Of a stretch of 64,000 bases of DNA, positions 3,174 to 19,258 are shown one piece after another (positions within the stretch are counted from its first letter, which is position 1; every line of letters begins with the position of its first letter). The stretch is from an uncultured Gammaproteobacteria bacterium (GTDB lineage Bacteria; Patescibacteriota; Microgenomatia; UBA8517), in contig CAZRJH010000002.1 in assembly GCA_964600575.1 (NCBI GenBank), positions 53,627 to 117,626 on the forward strand. Direction: 5' to 3'. The notes under the pieces are model-generated. The model was given only the letters and a program-made list of their open reading frames with translations, searched no databases and had not been told where the DNA came from. The translations under genes were made by a program, and so were the position numbers.

Positions 3174-3773
3174 CTATAGTATATTGAGTTCTCGAAGTTG
3201 GTCTCTGAGATTTGAGATTTCGTCACATTTAATTACCGAAAAACCGATACCTTTTGCAGCATCTATATTTGCTTGAGCGTCATCGATAAAAACAACCTCT
3301 TCTGGTTTTACGCCAAGTTTGTCAGAAAAATCCAGAAATGCCTCTTTTGTTGGTTTGGCAAAACCTGTTTCGGCAGATACCAAAATTAGATCTGCAATAT
3401 TTTTGAGATTTCCTTTCTCTCTTATAATTTTTGCTCCTTCTTTTGTGTCGTTGGATAGCACCCCAACTTTGTAACCTTTTGATTTAATCTCCCTGAGTAA
3501 ATCAATCATACCTGTATTAAGTTCTCGGGGAGCATCCACCACACCCATTAGCTGCTCATAGAATTCTGTCTTTTTTAAATCTTTTAGGATAGTTTTCCAA
3601 AAAATCTCTTTGGGCATTTTTCCCGAGTTAAATAACAGGTTGTATTTAAGATAGACCTGTCTAAAATCTGGGTAGGATACACCCAAAACACTGGAGACTT
3701 TTTCGTGAAACTTTTTTGCGGAATCGCCTGATATAACACCCGTATAATCAAAACCGACTGCTTTATATTTCAT
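3174..3773 (-). CDS. HAD-superfamily hydrolase
   Basis: 199 aa with motif I FDYTGV (DxT), motif III K and motif IV VVFIDD, typical of the HAD phosphatase family. Confidence 0.6.
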   Translation of the reverse strand: MKYKAVGFDYTGVISGDSAKKFHEKVSSVLGVSYPDFRQVYLKYNLLFNSGKMPKEIFWKTILKDLKKTEFYEQLMGVVDAPRELNTGMIDLLREIKSKGYKVGVLSNDTKEGAKIIREKGNLKNIADLILVSAETGFAKPTKEAFLDFSDKLGVKPEEVVFIDDAQANIDAAKGIGFSVIKCDEISNLRDQLRELNIL

Positions 3774-3788
3774 AATTGAAGTGTAACA

Positions 3789-4217
3789 CTATATGTTTTG
3801 AAATCTCCCATCTTCATACGGCGGGTAGCAGACTTCAAAAACTGTAAGCGTGGAATCTTCCGAAGCCTTCCATTGCATAGCATCTCCTACTTCTACAACA
3901 ACAGATAAATATTCCGTCGGTTTGTCTTCCACCAAAAACCTTTCTTCTGAACCGTTTTGCCTTAATATCGTTAAAACTCCCGAACCAGAAACATAACCTT
4001 CTATTGTTTTTTCGCCACTCAAGACTCTTTGTAAAGGAGTTTTGCAATCCGGTTCGATTTTTATAATTGCCAAATCCTTCTTTTTATCTGCCCAAAAACT
4101 ATAAACATCACAAGTTACACCTTCGGTAACATTATCAGTTTTTACATAATCCACAGGCAAAATCATTCCTTCAAATTCAAATTTTGTTAAAAAATCGTTT
4201 GGTTTTAGAGTTTCCAT
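3789..4217 (-). CDS. Hypothetical protein, possibly cupin-like beta-barrel
   Basis: 142 aa with beta-rich periodicity (EGYVSGSGVLTI…VVVEVGDAMQWKA) reminiscent of a cupin fold, but no His-motif. The call is tentative. Confidence 0.25.
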   Translation of the reverse strand: METLKPNDFLTKFEFEGMILPVDYVKTDNVTEGVTCDVYSFWADKKKDLAIIKIEPDCKTPLQRVLSGEKTIEGYVSGSGVLTILRQNGSEERFLVEDKPTEYLSVVVEVGDAMQWKASEDSTLTVFEVCYPPYEDGRFQNI

Positions 4218-4218
4218 A

Positions 4219-4695
4219 TTAATGTTTTACATTATCTACCAAAAAACTTCGCAAATGGGTGATTGCACGATCCTTATCTATATTACTTATTCCGTAGGTT
4301 TTTCCGTCCCAATTTATACCAGCCATTGTAGAAAGCGTAGAAACCGATACATCTTCGTTTCCTTGAAAAAATATCGGAACAACACGCTTCTTCTTTTCTA
4401 CTTTTAAAGTTATTGCTTTATAAAGTGCATCTTTCACCGGGCCATCTTCTTTCATTGCAACAGAGGGAATTATTAAAACTGCAGGACAGTTGTCCATTGT
4501 TCTATCAACATCCTCTTCCAAGACACTGCCTTTAATGGAGTCGTTTATATCGATTACAACAAAGCCTTCTTTGGAAAGATCGTCTTTTACACTGGAAGCT
4601 ATCTCCTGCGAGTCTTTAGGGGAGTAAACAAGAAGAAATGCACTTCGCTCTATTTTTTCTTTTTCTTTGCCAACCAGTGTTGGGCTTTCGGTCAT
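4219..4695 (-). CDS. Hypothetical flavodoxin-fold protein, TIR-like/DUF1863-like or nucleoside 2-deoxyribosyltransferase-like
   Basis: 158 aa. The pattern SAFLLVYSPKD…EGFVV(I)D…CPAVLIIPS…KRVVPIFF resembles the TIR beta-alpha layout. The start lies 5 nt after the rplO stop and the stop lies 1 nt before the next ORF. Confidence 0.3.
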   Translation of the reverse strand: MTESPTLVGKEKEKIERSAFLLVYSPKDSQEIASSVKDDLSKEGFVVIDINDSIKGSVLEEDVDRTMDNCPAVLIIPSVAMKEDGPVKDALYKAITLKVEKKKRVVPIFFQGNEDVSVSTLSTMAGINWDGKTYGISNIDKDRAITHLRSFLVDNVKH

Positions 4696-4700
4696 AATGA

Positions 4701-5108
4701 TTATTTAACAACCGATTTGGATGTGGGGACTTTGAATGTAAATTTTTTGGAAGAACTGCCGCCTCCTAAAACTTTTACTCCAAATTTCTTTGCCAAAGTT
4801 GAATCTACTATTTTTTCTTTGATCAAAAGATCTAAAGTGACCTCTGATCCTGTAGGGAGGATGTCTAGATCGGTGAGCGTTAAAAGGACAGGCTTGCCGC
4901 TGCCTTTAAACTTTCCTTTTCCTCTTTGTAGAGGAAGCCGCTTAAGTAAAGATTTTTTAACTTTCATTCCCTCGAAAAGAACACCTATTCCTCCGCGAGA
5001 TTTTTGTCCTTTTTGGCCACGGCTTGATGTGTGACCACCCTTACCTGTTCCAAGGCCTCTTCCGAGTCTTTTTTTTGATTTGGTTACAACTTTTGGTAAT
5101 TTATTCAT
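4701..5108 (-). CDS. rplO: 50S ribosomal protein L15
   Basis: 135 aa, Gly/Lys-rich N-terminus (RLGRGLGTGKGGHTSSRGQKGQKSRGG) typical of L15. Confidence 0.9.
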   Translation of the reverse strand: MNKLPKVVTKSKKRLGRGLGTGKGGHTSSRGQKGQKSRGGIGVLFEGMKVKKSLLKRLPLQRGKGKFKGSGKPVLLTLTDLDILPTGSEVTLDLLIKEKIVDSTLAKKFGVKVLGGGSSSKKFTFKVPTSKSVVK

Positions 5109-12456: not shown

Positions 12457-13182
12457 TTATTCCGTTTTAGGAGCGGATCCTGCTGTTTTTGCTCCTTCGC
12501 CTTCGGTAACTTGCGCAACTGTTTCGTGTTCCAAATCTTTAAGGCTTCCTGCTTTGATTTTTTTAATAGAAAGAAGTGTTCCGGTACTTCCGGGCACCTG
12601 ACCAGAAATTTCTACCTCGCCTGAATCCGCATTAACGGAAACTACATGCAAGTTTTTGACTGTAACCTGATCTCCACCCATTCTTCCTGCCATTCTTTTA
12701 CCTCTGTAAACTCTACCAGGAGTAGTGGTTTGTCCGATTGAACCCGGAGCACGCTCTCTATCGGATTGTCCGTGTGTTCTTGGACCACCTCTAAACCCGT
12801 GCTTTTTGACAACTCCAGCGAAACCTTTGCCCTTAGAAACTCCTGTAACCGCTACAACATCCCCAGGAGAAAAAATATCGGCGACCTTTATAGTGTCGCC
12901 TACTTTAAACTCCGGTTCGCTGTCTAATCTAATTTCTCTGAGATGTCTTGGGAAGGAATTTTCTTTTGAACTTGATTTGAGGTGTCCTTGGAGTGCTTTG
13001 GAGGTTACTTTTGTGCGTCTTGTACCAAATCCGATTTGTACTGCCCAGTAACCGTCTTTGTCCATCTTCTTAATTTGGGTCACGGTACAGGGGCCCGCTA
13101 TTACCTTGGTAACGGGAATTCTAAAACCTTCTATAAAGGTCTGACTATTTTTCAGCTTTGAACCTAATATTGTATTAATCAT
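12457..13182 (-). CDS. rplC: 50S ribosomal protein L3
   Basis: 241 aa, L3 (…GFAGVVKKHGFRGGPRTHGQSDRERAPGSIG…) with a C-terminal extension. Confidence 0.9.
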   Translation of the reverse strand: MINTILGSKLKNSQTFIEGFRIPVTKVIAGPCTVTQIKKMDKDGYWAVQIGFGTRRTKVTSKALQGHLKSSSKENSFPRHLREIRLDSEPEFKVGDTIKVADIFSPGDVVAVTGVSKGKGFAGVVKKHGFRGGPRTHGQSDRERAPGSIGQTTTPGRVYRGKRMAGRMGGDQVTVKNLHVVSVNADSGEVEISGQVPGSTGTLLSIKKIKAGSLKDLEHETVAQVTEGEGAKTAGSAPKTE

Positions 13183-13229
13183 ATTTGTTTTGGACCCGTT
13201 CGACTCCTACGTCGCTCAGGGCATTAAAC

Positions 13230-13254
13230 AAAAAAAAGCGCCTCTCGCGGCGCC
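13230..13254 (-). terminator. Intrinsic-terminator-like hairpin in the rplC leader (possible attenuator)
   Basis: All-GC 5-bp stem GCGCC/GGCGC (13238-13242 and 13249-13253) with a 6-nt loop. It is followed on the minus strand by U8 (plus-strand A-run 13230-13237), 47 nt upstream of the rplC start. Confidence 0.35.
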
Positions 13255-13322
13255 TATGAGGCACTGCCAAAGACTAGCTTTGTGGTTGAGCAAAATTCAT
13301 AACCACCATATTGTTACTCGGA

Positions 13323-13351
13323 ATTATATCAGATAGGGCCCTGCCCCGCAA
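13323..13351 (-). promoter_or_regulatory. Putative sigma70-type promoter facing rplC (TTGCGG-17-TATAAT)
   Basis: On the minus strand, -10 TATAAT sits at plus 13323-13328 and -35 TTGCGG at 13346-13351, with a 17-nt spacer. The predicted transcript would traverse the 13230-13254 hairpin. Confidence 0.25.
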
Positions 13352-13368
13352 GCACGGGGGAAGGGAAC

Positions 13369-13400
13369 AAAAAAGGCCCAAACCTAGAAAGATTTGGGCC
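13369..13400 (-). terminator. Rho-independent terminator after the 123-aa ORF
   Basis: 8-bp stem GGCCCAAA/TTTGGGCC (13375-13382 and 13393-13400) with a 10-nt loop, followed on the minus strand by UUUUUUGUU (plus A-run 13369-13374). It lies 22 nt after the ORF stop at 13422. Confidence 0.55.
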
Positions 13401-13421
13401 GAAGGCCTGTTGATTTATTGC

Positions 13422-13793
13422 TTAGCTTTTCAAGATGACCTTGACGCGCCGCCAGGTGAGCAAGATCGGGTTTTCTTTCTGGAAAGCGATCTTTCCATAA
13501 ACCGACTCGAAGGCGTCACGGATCAGTGGTGAAAGCTCATCCCAGCTGTGAGTGGCGAGTTTGTAAACCCGTAATTCACCTTTTGAGATTCGAACGCTAT
13601 TCACGCCGTGGATGCCCATGACCAGAACAGCGAGTTGTGAGCCTTTCTCACCAACCTCTTTTTGCTCTTTCTCGTCCAACGGGGCAGTGCGAACATAACT
13701 CCCGTGCGAGAGATCAAAATCCGTCAAAAACTGTTTTCCGGGATTGAGGTCGGAAAGTTCCCATTCATTTACGCGTGGTAAACCGTTTGTCAT
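13422..13793 (-). CDS. Hypothetical protein (123 aa), compositionally foreign
   Basis: The ORF is intact and its GC is visibly higher (~50%) than the ~40% host background. It has its own strong terminator and no recognisable motif. Confidence 0.45.
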   Translation of the reverse strand: MTNGLPRVNEWELSDLNPGKQFLTDFDLSHGSYVRTAPLDEKEQKEVGEKGSQLAVLVMGIHGVNSVRISKGELRVYKLATHSWDELSPLIRDAFESVYGKIAFQKENPILLTWRRVKVILKS

Positions 13794-13840
13794 TCTTGCC
13801 TCTTTTCGTTAATTCATTAATTAGATTCTACCGAACGAGG

Positions 13841-13890
13841 TTGTTGGTAGTTTTCCAACCATTGTTTCTTGGTCAGAAAACTACCAACAA
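13841..13890. repeat. Perfect 15-bp inverted repeat TTGTTGGTAGTTTTC-N20-GAAAACTACCAACAA
   Basis: The two arms (13841-13855 and 13876-13890) are exact reverse complements. The repeat lies 48-97 nt upstream (minus sense) of the 123-aa ORF start, and no U-tract follows it on either strand. Confidence 0.6.
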
Positions 13891-13968
13891 AGCATTTAAA
13901 GTACTAAACAACCTTACGAGAAGGTATTTTAACACAATTTGTTGTCGATATCAAACTATAGGTTTATG

Positions 13969-13977
13969 TGTTACAAT
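13969..13977 (+). promoter_or_regulatory. Extended -10 element TGtTACAAT on the plus strand
   Basis: TGnTACAAT at 13969-13977, about 5 nt upstream of an ATG at 13983. It may drive a leaderless small ORF convergent on the 142-aa gene. Confidence 0.2.
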
Positions 13978-13982
13978 CACCC

Positions 13983-14159
13983 ATGACCGTAGAAAGAATT
14001 TATATAGTTACCAGGAAAAATACTGCGGGGGTGGAAGAGATCATTCAGATACCCGAAAGCCAAATGGCAGCCTACAGGGCTAGTCTGGTAGAAAAAATTG
14101 AAACTGACAGACAAGCTGACTCTGAGGCCAAAACAGTACCACCAGCCGAAATAGTATAA
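13983..14159 (+). CDS. Possible small protein (58 aa from the internal Met; the track ORF starts at GTG 13968)
   Basis: MTVERIYIVTRKNTAGVEEIIQIPESQMAAYRASLVEKIE…. It is convergent with and abuts the 142-aa ORF, and could be spurious. Confidence 0.15.
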   Translation: MTVERIYIVTRKNTAGVEEIIQIPESQMAAYRASLVEKIETDRQADSEAKTVPPAEIV

Positions 14160-14162
14160 AAA

Positions 14163-14591
14163 CTAGCGTATTTTTACGCCCGAAGTGTCAATATCGGCAA
14201 TAGTAAAGCTAAACAACCTGGTCATATTCTTATCCGCAACCAAGAAACTTCCCCTACCCGACAAAATGTCCAAGTGAGTTCTTTCCTCGGTATTAATACT
14301 TCCGCCAACACTAGTGGTTGCATATTTAGCACCTTCTACTTTGCTTAGATGCCTGGCGGCCTTAAGGACGAGAACAGGATCTTCCGTTTCTATACGGAGA
14401 GTAGTTAGGGGTAGTTTAACAATCCAATTCATTTCCAAGGCAGTCTTAATTGCTTTCTCTGTTTGTTTTCCGTATTCAGTAGCATCCGCATCACGATTTT
14501 CGCTTGCAGCTTTTTGCCAATTTTCCAATGAAGAAACTAATTCTACTTCAAGTTTGTCTATATCTACTTCACTTTTTGTAGTCTCTGTCAT
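14163..14591 (-). CDS. Hypothetical protein (142 aa) translationally coupled to rpsJ
   Basis: Its ATG lies 3 nt after the S10 stop codon (TAA-agt-ATG) and its GC is host-like. Weak nucleotidyltransferase-like motif VGGSx9DIL with the second acidic residue missing; no confident family assignment. Confidence 0.5.
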   Translation of the reverse strand: MTETTKSEVDIDKLEVELVSSLENWQKAASENRDADATEYGKQTEKAIKTALEMNWIVKLPLTTLRIETEDPVLVLKAARHLSKVEGAKYATTSVGGSINTEERTHLDILSGRGSFLVADKNMTRLFSFTIADIDTSGVKIR

Positions 14592-14594
14592 ACT

Positions 14595-14900
14595 TTACAT
14601 CTTAATCTCGATAGAAACTCCCGCGGGGAGATCCAGATTGCCCAAAGAATCTACAGTTCTTGGGGTTGGGTCAATAATATCTATAAGTCTTTTGTGCGTT
14701 AGAACTTCAAAATGTTCTTGGGCATCTTTGTCCGTAAAAGGAGATTCTTTGATTGCCATTACGGAGCGGTTTGTGGGAAGAGGAATAGGACCGACAATTT
14801 TTGCACCTGAAGATAGCGCGGTATCTATAATTTTACCGGCTGCCTCATCTAAGACCCTGTGGTCATAACTTTTAAGTTTGACTCTTAGTCTAATTGCCAT
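14595..14900 (-). CDS. rpsJ: 30S ribosomal protein S10
   Basis: 101 aa, S10 ([24 protein letters not shown]…). Confidence 0.9.
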
Positions 14901-14939: not shown

Positions 14940-16130
14940 TTATACAAGTACCTTGGTGATAACTCCTGCACCTACTGTGTGTCCGCCTTCTCTGATTGCA
15001 AATCTAAGACCCTCCTCGAGCGCTACCGGTTGAATAAGTTTAACTTTCATTTTTGCGTTGTCTCCAGGCATAACCATTTCGATTCCTTCTGGTAGAGTTG
15101 CTTCTCCTGTTACATCTGCAGTTCTAATATAGAACTGGGGTTTGTAACCTGTGAAGAAAGGTGTGTGTCTTCCACCTTCTTCTTTGGAAAGAATATAAAC
15201 TTCTGCTTCGAATTCTGTGTGAGGGGTAACGCTGCCTGATTTAGCAAGAACTTGACCTCTTTCGACTTGATCTTTTTCGACACCTCTAAGAAGAACTCCT
15301 ACGTTATCTCCTGCCATAGCTTCATCAAGTGTCTTTCTAAACATTTCAAGACCTGTGACTATAGATTTTGCTGTGTCTTTAATACCGACAATTTCGATTT
15401 CTTCGTTAACTTTGATAACTCCGCGCTCTACTCTACCTGTGACTACTGTTCCGCGTCCAGAAATTGTGAATACGTCTTCGACAGGCATTAAGAAAGGTTT
15501 GTCTGTTTGTCTTACGGGATCGGGAATGTAGTTATCAACTGCATCCATAAGTTCTGTAATTTTCTTTTCTGCTTCTGCGTCACCTTCTACAGCTTTTAGA
15601 GCGGATCCTCTGATTACAGGAACTTCGTCTCCCGGATATTCATATTTCTTAAGAAGTTCTCTTACATCTGCTTCGACCAAATCAATGATTTCGGGGTCAT
15701 CTACCGTGTCACATTTGTTGAGGAAAACTACGAGTGCAGGAACATTAACTTGTCTTGCCAAAATAACGTGCTCTCTAGTTTGAGGCATAGGTCCGTCTGC
15801 TGCGGAAACTACCAAAATAGCTCCGTCCATTTGAGCTGCACCGGTAATCATGTTCTTGATGTAGTCAGCATGACCAGGAGCATCGATGTGTGCATAATGT
15901 CTTTTTGCTGTTTGATATTCTTGATGAGAAAGATTAATTGTAACTCCTCTTTCTTTTTCTTCGGGAGCGGAATCGATGTCTTCGTATTTCTTAGCTGTGG
16001 CGAGTCCTTGCTTGGCAAGAACCATGGTAATTGCGGAGGTTAGAGTTGTCTTTCCGTGATCAACGTGACCAATAGTACCAATGTTTACATGGGGTTTGCT
16101 GCGATCAAATTTTTGTTTTGCGTCTGCCAT
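14940..16130 (-). CDS. tuf: Elongation factor Tu
   Basis: 396 aa with [10 protein letters not shown] and the DAPGHADY G-domain motifs. Confidence 0.95.
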
Positions 16131-16182: not shown

Positions 16183-16250
16183 GAGGCACATTCAGCCTCG
16201 ATTAGTTGTAATTATAATCGAGCCTATTTAAGGCTGTCAATAGGTATATT

Positions 16251-17048
16251 CTACTTTTTAGTCGAACTGGCTGAAAAATTCACGGCCGTAACAATTAAAG
16301 CCACTATTGTAAAAGTGAACGGGAAAGCTTTCCAACCAACATAAGTATTCAAAGCTTCTAGAATTAAAGGAAGTGTCATGGAAAAGACCGCAACTTTGTA
16401 GGACTCTTTGTAGGTTAGGCTTTTTTTAAGTACTTTTGCCAAAAGCAAAACCAAAAGTGCCAGGAAAAATCCGTACACTAGCCTGAAAGATTGCAGTATA
16501 TAAAGGGTTACCAAGGCAAACACCATTATTAACGGACCAAGATATGGTATCCAGGGAGAAATCTTTGAACCAAAACTGTTAACCAGCTCTTTGTTAATCG
16601 TCATATCTTTCATTTGATAGAAACTCTGGCTTTTAATGGCCCCTCCGCTTTCTTCGCTAAAAACCGAATCTTTAGTCACCCAAACCGGCACCCCGTATTT
16701 TTTGAACTGTTCTACTGAATACGGAGTCTTTGTATCTATAACTGCAAATTTATTATTTGTTTTATCCGCTAAGAAATATGGCTCTTTTACGTTTGTAGAC
16801 AAATTGCCCGACTTGAAAGTAAGTACGAGATTGTTGGGATATGTGTCTATAAGTTCAACAACCGTGGTTCTTATTTTTCCTGAAAATGCGAATAAAAATT
16901 CCGGCATACTTTTGCCAAACATCAGAAGTTCAACTAAAAGCAAAAGCAAGAAAAAATATCCCAAAACTGGGCCTATCGTCATCTTTGGAATCTGTGAATA
17001 AAAGGCCGGTGAATAAATGCTTGCAGCAATTTTCTTGAAGAAATTCAT
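16251..17048 (-). CDS. Hypothetical membrane protein (265 aa) inserted between fusA and tuf
   Basis: TM helices at the N- and C-termini with a large middle domain and no motif. It starts 41 nt after the fusA stop. Confidence 0.5.
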   Translation of the reverse strand: MNFFKKIAASIYSPAFYSQIPKMTIGPVLGYFFLLLLLVELLMFGKSMPEFLFAFSGKIRTTVVELIDTYPNNLVLTFKSGNLSTNVKEPYFLADKTNNKFAVIDTKTPYSVEQFKKYGVPVWVTKDSVFSEESGGAIKSQSFYQMKDMTINKELVNSFGSKISPWIPYLGPLIMVFALVTLYILQSFRLVYGFFLALLVLLLAKVLKKSLTYKESYKVAVFSMTLPLILEALNTYVGWKAFPFTFTIVALIVTAVNFSASSTKK

Positions 17049-17089: not shown

Positions 17090-19258
17090 TTAGCCTCTGG
17101 CCATAGTAACCTTGCCTGCTTTTTCGATAATTTGAGCCGCAATGTGGGAAGGCACCTCGTCGTAATGGGAGGGCTCGACATATGCTCTGGCACGACCTTG
17201 AGTAAGTGACCTAAGCTTTGTTGCATAACCTGAAAGCTCTGCAAGTGGTACGCTTCCGTAAATAACCGTTTCCCCTGCCTTTTCTTCGGATCCCGAAATT
17301 TGAGCGCGCTTACTGGAAAGGTCCCCAATTACGTCACCCATGAATTCCCCTGGGGTAAAGACCTCGATCTTCATTATCGGCTCCAAAAGTCCCGGTTCAC
17401 ATTTTTTGAATGTGTCTTCCAGGGCCATAGAACCTGCGATCTTAAAGGCCATTTCGCTGGAGTCTACTTCGTGGAAAGATCCGTCAAAAACAACAACTCT
17501 CATATCTACCATTGGAAAACCCGCCAATACTCCATTTTCCATCTTTTCTTTGACACCTTTTTCGATGGGGCCAATATATTCTTGGGGAATAGCTCCACCT
17601 TTGATTTCGCTTTTGAATTCAAACCCTTCACCCCTGCCCAAGGGTTCAATGCGCAACAAACAGTGTCCGTATTGTCCGCGGCCTCCGGTTTGTCTGATGT
17701 ACTTACCTTCGCCTTCGCCGATCTTTTTAACTGTTTCTTTGTAAGCAACTTGTGGTGCACCTGTATTGGCGACAACATTAAACTCTCTCTTCATACGATC
17801 TACCAAGACTTCCAGTTGCAACTCTCCCATTCCCGAAATAATTGTTTGTCCTGTTTCGGCATTGCTTTTGATACGGAATGTAGGGTCTTCGTCTGAAAGT
17901 TTAGAAAGTGCAATTCCCATCTTTTCTTGATCGGATTTGGTTGCAGGTTCGATAGCAAGAGATATAACCGGTTCCGGGAACGAAATAGATTCTAGTGTCA
18001 AAGGATGATCCGAATCACAAACTGTGTCACCTGTGGAGGTGTCTTTAACTCCAACGACTGCTACAATTTCCCCTGCAAAAGCCTCTTCTATAAGCTCCCT
18101 TTGGTCGGCGTGCAACAAAACCAGTTTCCCGATTCTTTCGTATTTTTGTTTTGTGGTGTTATAAACTTCTTGACCTGTTTTAATGGAACCCGAATAAACT
18201 CTCATATAAACCAAGCGTCCGACATGGGGATCGGTAATCACTTTGAAAGCCAAAGCCGATAGCGGAGCTTCGTTCTTTCTTTCTCTTGTTTCGTGTTCTC
18301 CTGTTTTGAGATTTGTTCCTGTAACAGGAGGGAGATCTATCGGGGAAGGCAAGAACTCCACTACTCCATCTAATAGAAGTTGAGATTCAGCTGTTCTGTT
18401 GTCTCCACCAAATACGGGGAAGAACTTACCTGCAATAACACCTTTTCTGATTGCTCTTTTAAGCGTTATTTCATCCGGCTCCTTGCCTTCGAGGAACATA
18501 TTCAAAGCTTCGTCGTCGAACTCTGAAACTTTTTCTATAAGCTCGGCTCGATATTTGTTGGCCATATCTGCAACTTCTGCAGGAATCTCACCCTCTGTGA
18601 GTTCGTGATCTTCGATTGCCTTGAATGTTAAAGCTTTCATTGTTATCAAATTAACAACACCTCTGTGGTCATGTTCCTGACCAATAGGTACAACAACAGG
18701 GGATGCATTGGCTCTAAGTCTTTCCCTGATTGATTTAATCGAGGATTCGAAGTCTGCACCAATAAGATTTAATTTATTAAGAACACAGATTCTCGGTACA
18801 TTATATTTATCTGCCTGTCTCCACACTGTTTCCGACTGGGATTCTACCCCTGTTCTACCGTCGAAGACCATTAATGCGCCGTCTAAAACCCTCAAGCTTC
18901 TTTCTACCTCGGCCGTAAAGTCAATGTGACCCGGTGTGTCTATAAGGTTGATTCTGTAATGGCCTGCCTCGACAGAGGAATCTTTTTTGAGATCCCAGAA
19001 GGCTGTGATTGCAGCGGAAACAATGGTAATTCCACGCTCTCTTTCTTGGGCCATCCAGTCTGTGACTGTTGTTCCGTCATCAACACTTCCCAACTTATAT
19101 GTTCTACCAGTCTCGTAAAGAAGTCTTTCGGTGGTTGTAGTTTTGCCTGCATCAATATGAGCAATAATCCCTATATTTCTGATTTTCTCATAGGAAACAA
19201 CACGGTCTTTGGTGGCCGTGACAACAATACTAGCTTTTTTCTTTGCAACTTCTGCCAT
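17090..19258 (-). CDS. fusA: Elongation factor G
   Basis: 722 aa with AHIDAGKTTTTE and DTPGHIDF motifs plus EF-G domains IV and V. Confidence 0.95.
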   Translation of the reverse strand: MAEVAKKKASIVVTATKDRVVSYEKIRNIGIIAHIDAGKTTTTERLLYETGRTYKLGSVDDGTTVTDWMAQERERGITIVSAAITAFWDLKKDSSVEAGHYRINLIDTPGHIDFTAEVERSLRVLDGALMVFDGRTGVESQSETVWRQADKYNVPRICVLNKLNLIGADFESSIKSIRERLRANASPVVVPIGQEHDHRGVVNLITMKALTFKAIEDHELTEGEIPAEVADMANKYRAELIEKVSEFDDEALNMFLEGKEPDEITLKRAIRKGVIAGKFFPVFGGDNRTAESQLLLDGVVEFLPSPIDLPPVTGTNLKTGEHETRERKNEAPLSALAFKVITDPHVGRLVYMRVYSGSIKTGQEVYNTTKQKYERIGKLVLLHADQRELIEEAFAGEIVAVVGVKDTSTGDTVCDSDHPLTLESISFPEPVISLAIEPATKSDQEKMGIALSKLSDEDPTFRIKSNAETGQTIISGMGELQLEVLVDRMKREFNVVANTGAPQVAYKETVKKIGEGEGKYIRQTGGRGQYGHCLLRIEPLGRGEGFEFKSEIKGGAIPQEYIGPIEKGVKEKMENGVLAGFPMVDMRVVVFDGSFHEVDSSEMAFKIAGSMALEDTFKKCEPGLLEPIMKIEVFTPGEFMGDVIGDLSSKRAQISGSEEKAGETVIYGSVPLAELSGYATKLRSLTQGRARAYVEPSHYDEVPSHIAAQIIEKAGKVTMARG

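Follow-up and report, generated by a model that had tools for sequence, protein, structure and literature searches.

A probable flexible genomic islet at the rpsJ-rplC operon boundary of a Microgenomates-type lineage

The interval between rpsJ and rplC (the genes for ribosomal proteins S10 and L3) at positions 13183-14594 of a 64,000-nucleotide (nt) stretch of contig CAZRJH010000002.1 is probably a flexible genomic islet with three mutually independent genes, situated at an operon boundary that its Microgenomates-type lineage had before the islet formed. We call the whole stretch the window, and the three open reading frames (ORFs) are named ORF142, ORF58 and ORF123 after their lengths in amino acids (aa). 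No bacterial gene order is regarded as more stable than that of the ribosomal-protein clusters, which serve as anchors in phylogenetics and binning. The initial annotation took rpsJ and rplC to be universally adjacent and the interval to be an insertion that splits their operon in two. In our reading ORF142 would be the last cistron of a tuf-rpsJ unit driven by a consensus promoter upstream, ORF123 would be a self-contained cassette with promoter, structured 5' untranslated region (UTR), gene and terminator, and rplC and the ribosomal genes that follow it would depend on a promoter and leader of their own. The Logan assemblies of two sequencing runs (SRR16481186 and SRR16481187) contain an identical locus, which rules out an artefact in the assembly of a single sample. 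Read along the direction of transcription, the genes are fusA, a DUF1189 gene, tuf, rpsJ, ORF142, ORF58 (opposite strand), ORF123, rplC, rplD, rplW and rplB, all relevant genes except ORF58 being on the minus strand. From rpsJ to rplC the elements are:

14595-14900, minus strand: rpsJ, ribosomal protein S10 (Pfam Ribosomal_S10)
14163-14591, minus strand: ORF142, 142 aa, its ATG 3 nt past the S10 stop (TAA-agt-ATG)
14165-14180, minus strand: weak terminator-like hairpin overlapping the ORF142 stop codon, with a 6-base-pair (bp) stem, then AGTTTTTATA
13983-14159, plus strand: ORF58, 58 aa, convergent with ORF142 (63 aa from the GTG at 13968)
13969-13977, plus strand: extended -10 of ORF58 (TGTTACAAT), its end 5 nt before the ORF58 ATG
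13926-13954, minus strand: promoter-like site of the ORF123 unit, TTGATA-17-TAAAAT with TG
13841-13890, minus strand: RNA hairpin in the 5' UTR of ORF123, arms 13841-13861 and 13870-13890
13422-13793, minus strand: ORF123, 123 aa, a stand-alone cysteine-free protein with a predicted Nfu_N fold
13365-13400, minus strand: putative intrinsic terminator of the ORF123 unit, 11-bp stem 13400-13375, then a T-run; also found in L003
13323-13351, minus strand: predicted rplC promoter, TTGCGG-17-TATAAT with TG extension; extended -10 TGATATAAT at 13331-13323
13223-13322, minus strand: rplC leader, with hairpin GGTGGTT..AACCAC at 13307-13282 and a GC-rich terminator-like hairpin at 13255-13236 with U8 to 13228
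12457-13182, minus strand: rplC, ribosomal protein L3

The anatomy given initially stands: the convergent plus-strand micro-ORF, the perfect 15-bp inverted repeat, the higher-GC 123-aa ORF with its terminator, and the promoter-like element with leader hairpin before rplC are all present. The window contains no transfer RNA gene and no Rfam match at gathering thresholds.

Did the islet break the operon? A common layout upstream of rplC was found in eight genomes, those of the window and of seven related loci (L003, L004, L005, L006, L007, L090 and L091). It consists of a TTGCGN or TTGACG-17-TATAAT promoter with a TG extension, a GGTGGTT..AACCAC hairpin, and a GC-rich hairpin (-11.7 to -14.8 kcal/mol) with a run of six or more U behind it, and rplC starts 45-60 nt past the GC-rich hairpin and U-run (about 90 nt in L091). 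The leader occupies 5849-5957 in L003, 5844-5950 in L004, 1528-1624 in L005, 5849-5952 in L006, 5815-5920 in L007, 2235-2334 in L090 and 2945-3054 in L091; its first hairpin is conserved in sequence and shows no compensatory changes. Promoter and leader are there whatever the size of the gap between rpsJ and rplC (191 nt to 4.2 kb), and this includes L004 and L005, whose gaps of 191 and 317 nt contain no inserted genes. Upstream, the following features complete the picture:

16211-16240, minus strand: predicted promoter of tuf-rpsJ-ORF142, sigma-70-type consensus TTGACA-18-TATAAT, 12/12 matches
16199-16183, minus strand: hairpin and U-run before tuf, within about 12 nt of the tuf promoter
14940-16130, minus strand: tuf (EF-Tu)
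16251-17048, minus strand: DUF1189 membrane-protein gene, between fusA and tuf
17090-19258, minus strand: fusA

The tuf promoter and hairpin are kept in L003, L004 and L007. Because the rplC promoter and leader occur in insertion-free relatives and tuf has a consensus promoter of its own, the islet would occupy an older boundary and would not itself have broken the operon; going by these predicted signals, rpsJ is the tail of the tuf unit in this clade and rplC the head of a separate one. The earlier claim of a split into two transcription units thus survives in that rplC has a predicted promoter of its own, and fails in making the insertion responsible. The DUF1189 gene, a second interruption of the usual str-operon order, is kept in L003 (77% identity).

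The rplC leader is a candidate new ribosomal-protein leader or attenuator. Like the E. coli S10 leader, which acts by L4-mediated attenuation, and the L4-Archaeoglobi leader, it is a promoter-proximal structured leader with a terminator-like hairpin before an L3/L4 operon, and an L4-type attenuator role is possible. It differs from the E. coli S10 leader in lying before rplC, not rpsJ, and it matches no Rfam family at gathering or E-value thresholds. The archaeal L4-Archaeoglobi leader is the sole one described upstream of rplC (PMC7247131). Caution as to an L4-type role is warranted because the promoter and hairpin/U-run before tuf are laid out similarly, and the two together may represent a generic leader design in the clade. 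There is no obvious Shine-Dalgarno sequence near the rplC ATG in any of the eight genomes.

The neighbourhood of rpsJ and rplC is common among relatives, not universal as had been supposed: of 74 related loci that have the two genes, 16 show a gap of more than 400 nt and 12 one of more than 1 kb. Set against L004 and L005 the insertion in the window is real, and to that extent the initial description was right. The closest L3 relatives are uncultured Patescibacteria or Microgenomates-type genomes, L005 being named Candidatus Woesebacteria. The nearest genome, L003, encodes EF-Tu and S10 proteins 99% identical and an L3 91% identical to those of the window. Its nucleotide homology to the window (94%) runs up to the S10 stop codon (14595) and no further, and restarts at the ORF123 stop codon (13426), from which point the noncoding DNA up to the first rplC codons is 87% identical. 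Between these points L003 has 3.0 kb of unlike DNA with ORFs of 102, 382 and 167 aa and then a 125-aa ORF123 homologue (43% identity).

The gap genes differ likewise in L003, L006, L007, L020, L026, L062, L083, L087 and L090-L095. That of L006 holds Maf, a VapBC-like pair (3311-3975) and a Nudix-like ORF, by sequence inspection; that of L007 an FtsJ-type methyltransferase; that of L020 (5317-5900) a ParE toxin identified by Pfam beside an ORF that on inspection is ribbon-helix-helix-like; and those of L026 and L062, again by inspection, a Nudix-like and a P-type-ATPase-like ORF, respectively. This rapid turnover would be explained if homologous recombination used the strongly conserved sequences at either end as anchors, namely tuf-rpsJ and, at the other end, the rplC leader with rplC; we infer such a role for them. 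The islet shares with flexible, replacement-type genomic islands a fixed slot between core genes with differing content in close relatives, an atypical composition and, on short metagenome contigs, a near-identical cassette in divergent backgrounds. It departs from them in being very small (1.2-4 kb), in lying inside the normally contiguous str-S10 cluster, and in having no recombinase or tRNA target.

Several further observations concern this junction. Close records including L003, L006 and L007 are titled 'uncultured Gammaproteobacteria', yet their L3, L4, S10 and EF-Tu group with the Microgenomates-type clade, and judged by these proteins the labels are probably wrong. Mobile and toxin-antitoxin genes adjoin rpsJ in other Patescibacteria (L038, L020 and L006), the first of these, a distant relative, having an IS30-like transposase between tuf and rpsJ (4106-5050, by inspection). 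A family of 382-404 aa with a CxxC..CxxC zinc-ribbon-like motif occurs in the S10-L3 islet of three genomes (L003 3328-4476, L083 1956-2336 and L091 25-1239) and has no significant Pfam family. The 102-aa ORF of L003 obtained weak support as an Nfu_N-like protein (hhalign 41%). As read, the S10 ORFs of three Patescibacteria (L020 4106-4537, L038 5121-5594 and L043 5102-5515) carry lysine/alanine-rich N-terminal extensions of 40-55 aa. Insertions of 1.2-2.3 kb between rpsJ and rplC are also found in Bacteroidota, in L050, L056, L067, L078 and L079 (Pedobacter/Sphingobacteriales), L063 (Hymenobacter) and L064 (Bacteroidales), so the junction can be interrupted outside the candidate phyla radiation as well; in the Sphingobacteriales block the insertion measures about 2.2 kb, and its genes look on inspection like membrane-protein genes (e.g. 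in L067). A literature search found no papers on rpsJ/rplC in Patescibacteria or on the S10 operon in the candidate phyla radiation.

For ORF123 the remote-homology and structure searches that had been proposed for both proteins were productive. A profile search recovered nine family members with 37-58% identity to ORF123, and all eight loci with informative flanks place the gene inside the S10-L3 gap. The AlphaFold2 model has a predicted local distance difference test (pLDDT) score of 86.9, and its top five Foldseek matches in the PDB are all Nfu_N structures (probability 0.98-1.00): the N-domains of yeast and human NFU1 (2LTM, 2LTL), Staphylococcus aureus SAV1430 (1PQX/2FFM) and S. epidermidis SeR13 (2K1H). 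Two family members carry precomputed matches to Pfam PF08712 (Nfu_N). Tandem Nfu_N paralogues exist in L087 and L089; the L087 paralogue scores 34.2 bits, above the Pfam cut-off, and aligns to the ORF123 family with an hhalign probability of 97% (E 6.7e-11). By its model, then, ORF123 has the Nfu_N alpha/beta fold. A metagenome scan with ORF123 returned one locus, already known, and no paralogues or additional hairpin copies turned up in the window.

ORF123 has no cysteine and no second domain, the C-terminal NifU domain with its CxxC ligands being absent, and it therefore cannot ligate an iron-sulphur cluster as the NifU C-domain does. The NFU1 N-domain, which like ORF123 has no CxxC cluster ligands, has been described as being of unknown role, possibly a modulator of cluster transfer (PMC10388178); by analogy ORF123 may be a non-catalytic protein-binding module that holds no such cluster. 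It is small and single-domain, as are the stand-alone Nfu_N proteins of the SAV1430 type. It differs from known Nfu_N proteins in that the model adds an N-terminal beta-hairpin and a basic C-terminal helix, and in that its family is confined to one Microgenomates clade and to the rpsJ-rplC slot and is preceded by a conserved 5'-UTR hairpin.

This hairpin is the inverted repeat that the initial annotation regarded as a palindromic, operator-like site. Its arms are 21 nt long and 90% complementary, with the perfect 15-bp core inside them. The same long hairpin precedes the gene in all nine distinct homologue loci examined, in each case between a promoter-like site and the ribosome-binding site; the promoter-like sequences upstream of homologues are comparable to that of ORF123. 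Over the 21 pairs of the alignment, 89.9% of cells are paired; sliding the partner columns lowers this to 31-51%. Eight pairs show compensatory changes, and none of 500 shuffles reached the observed values. On the sense strand several of the pairs are U.G or G.U, which on the other strand would be mismatches, and a covariance model scores the window at 53.8 bits in sense and 33.3 bits in antisense orientation; it detects a single copy in each locus and no others. Taken together, the covariation, the G.U pairs and the difference between strands indicate an RNA-level element of the ORF123-family mRNA and not a DNA operator. It most likely would act after transcription, on mRNA stability, processing or translation. 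Two other identities were considered for it and rejected. As an integron attC site it fails on inspection, the arms (TTGTTGGTAG.. / ..CTACCAACAA; consensus CGCTGGTAGC../..GCTGCCAACG) not fitting the RYYYAAC/GTTRRRY boxes, and neither the window flanks nor the related loci yielded an integron integrase. Matches of the long hairpin to Rfam microRNA models were dismissed as a generic-hairpin artefact; it has no other Rfam match.

Is the ORF123 cassette a resident of the locus or a traveller? Its G+C content is 0.496, and 0.569 at third codon positions (GC3), against 0.413 and 0.341 +/- 0.037 (maximum 0.472) in 32 long ORFs of the window; its GC3 is thus about 6 standard deviations above these host ORFs, and none of the 32 has a codon score as low as its own. 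Islet genes of relatives share the bias. The family tree has two subfamilies and is incongruent with the host relationships, the nearest genome L003 carrying the other subfamily. In L094 (977-1913) and L095 (1093-2030) the cassette, comprising promoter, hairpin, gene and next gene, is 99.7% identical over 938 nt, whereas the S10 3' ends are only 79% identical and the upstream neighbours differ. The L090 cassette has direct repeats of about 75 nt, with a terminator inside them, on either side. These data may point to exchange of the ORF123 cassette among related genomes. A different account makes the family a vertically inherited resident gene and puts the incongruent tree down to differential loss of old tandem paralogues. 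The tandem paralogues in L087 and L089 would suit it, as would the constant position next to the rplC leader and the two clear subfamilies, and the incongruence could in part stem from the sorting of old paralogues. We nevertheless think it unlikely as a whole, given the L094/L095 identity, the deviant GC3 and the empty gaps of L004 and L005.

Two side observations concern the cassette in other genomes. A near-identical terminator element (CCCTGAAC..GTTCAGGG + T7) stands on both sides of the L090 cassette (1047-1075 and 2132-2160) and recurs at L091 2551, L092 1488 and L094 920; such repeated elements are possible recombination substrates. Directly 3' of ORF123 homologues, and not in the window, lies an ORF of 130-136 aa (L090 1703-2095, L091 2117-2509, L096 616-1008, L094 1573-1983). 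BLAST shows the L090 and L091 copies to be homologous, and the regions in L094 and L096 can be aligned with these loci as DNA; the copies scanned against Pfam (L090 and L094) gave no match. The arrangement suggests a two-gene operon of ORF123 homologue and 130-136-aa ORF in those genomes.

ORF142 is a different case. Its start 3 nt past the S10 stop was confirmed as initially described, and the protein (15.7 kDa, acidic, isoelectric point 5.3) has host-like codon usage similar to that of the ribosomal genes (GC3 0.338), its own frame scoring far above the other five. A word-index search returned the query alone, and a HMMER scan of 1.84 billion representative proteins gave one true homologue, P0003, a protein of 139 aa that is 41% identical over the full length (E 4e-21). 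The P0003 gene immediately follows rpsJ, the stop and start codons overlapping as TAATG, in a genome whose S10 and EF-Tu are 97% and 96% identical to those of the window. Since P0003 is S10-coupled too, the coupled position is a conserved property of the family and ORF142 a real gene. A second candidate, P0004, an 817-aa SprB-repeat protein, was rejected because its score was inflated by the summing of 10 identical repeats, and a relationship between ORF142 and ORF123 was likewise rejected (hhalign probability 0.07%). ORF142 has no match in Pfam (E up to 10), NCBIfam, PADLOC or PHROGs, a profile search of the PDB gave nothing below E 0.02, and a metagenome scan found nothing. From its position and codon usage ORF142 is most likely a lineage-restricted accessory protein expressed along with S10, and would be translated by termination-reinitiation after S10.

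Might it be more than an accessory? It could be a so far unrecognised protein that partners S10 (NusE) or the ribosome in this lineage, with translational coupling keeping its synthesis level with that of S10; both family members keep the coupled position despite their 41% identity, and the codon usage is close to that of ribosomal genes. Such a role is improbable in view of the patchy distribution, ORF142 being absent from L003, L087, L092, L095 and other relatives with rpsJ-adjacent sequence, since an essential partner would not be lost so readily; the protein is moreover acidic, with no detectable RNA-binding or ribosomal-protein similarity. We give no better prospects to the broader proposal that ORF142 belongs to a new, fast-evolving family made stoichiometrically with S10 and acting on S10/NusE or the small subunit, with the Nfu_N cassettes and their hairpin forming a recombination-exchanged module of the slot.

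ORF58, between the other two, is uncertain as a gene. It is predicted by gene callers, and its codon usage is host-like, with a score of 0.297 that exceeds those of all 48 shadow ORFs; tblastx against the related loci gave no homologue, and PHROGs nothing meaningful. As its extended -10 ends 5 nt before the ATG, the ORF58 mRNA may be leaderless.

The initial annotation also saw the islet as a possible remnant of a mobile element, i.e. a decayed prophage, integrative element or insertion sequence. The part of this that stands is the foreign-like GC3 of the ORF123 cassette together with its signs of exchange, and the region is indeed variable, with the transposase beside rpsJ in L038 as a further hint. 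Against it, the window has no integrase, transposase, target-site duplication or flanking repeat, neither the ORF142 nor the ORF123 family is related to anything in 2.9 million viral contigs, PHROGs gave nothing meaningful, and ORF142 and ORF58 have host-like codon usage. We consider a decayed element very unlikely.

The proposal of a two-gene toxin-antitoxin or abortive-infection cassette, ORF142 plus ORF123 with the palindrome as operator, is largely refuted and now hardly credible: as in type II toxin-antitoxin modules there are small ORFs, a palindrome near a promoter and a dedicated terminator, and other genomes do carry such modules in the gap (the VapBC-like pair of L006, ParE of L020), but the two genes are 369 nt apart with the convergent ORF58, a promoter-like site and a 5' UTR between them, and so appear neither adjacent nor co-transcribed, no toxin, antitoxin or defence family in Pfam, NCBIfam, PADLOC or PHROGs is matched, ORF123 has an Nfu_N fold, ORF142 has its single homologue among the 1.84 billion representatives, the palindrome behaves as a sense-strand RNA hairpin, and homologues of ORF123 stand without one of ORF142 in at least eight loci (L003, L087, L090-L092 and L094-L096). 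The pair, sought in related genomes as had been suggested, was thus not met with, and the ORF123-homologue loci with informative flanks all lay in the S10-L3 gap and not elsewhere. The initial annotation had also reckoned with both proteins being conserved housekeeping genes of this position; both do have positional homologues, which are patchy and not housekeeping-like.

Returning to the flexible islet at an older boundary, some points weigh against it. The L094/L095 identity comes from short Logan metagenome contigs, which are possibly strain chimeras. Low expression, and not foreign origin, could account in part for the high GC3 of islet genes. The window islet is not bounded by direct repeats and has no recombinase close by, so that the mechanism of exchange is one we infer. 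ORF123 itself scores 20.4 bits against Pfam Nfu_N, below the gathering cut-off of 27. The AlphaFold2 model of ORF142 is poor (pLDDT 43.8) and gave no Foldseek match below E 0.25. The S10-ORF142 coupling, the promoters and the terminators, and with them what we say of expression, are read from the DNA sequence.

If the islet is what we take it to be, the rpsJ/rplC junction of one clade of the candidate phyla radiation is an operon boundary at which genes can come and go rapidly. It yields three objects: an S10-coupled orphan, a clade-specific, cysteine-free Nfu_N family with a covarying 5'-UTR hairpin, and a previously undescribed candidate rplC leader. These are unlikely to overturn current views; they would serve as entry points into organisms with almost no known regulatory elements.

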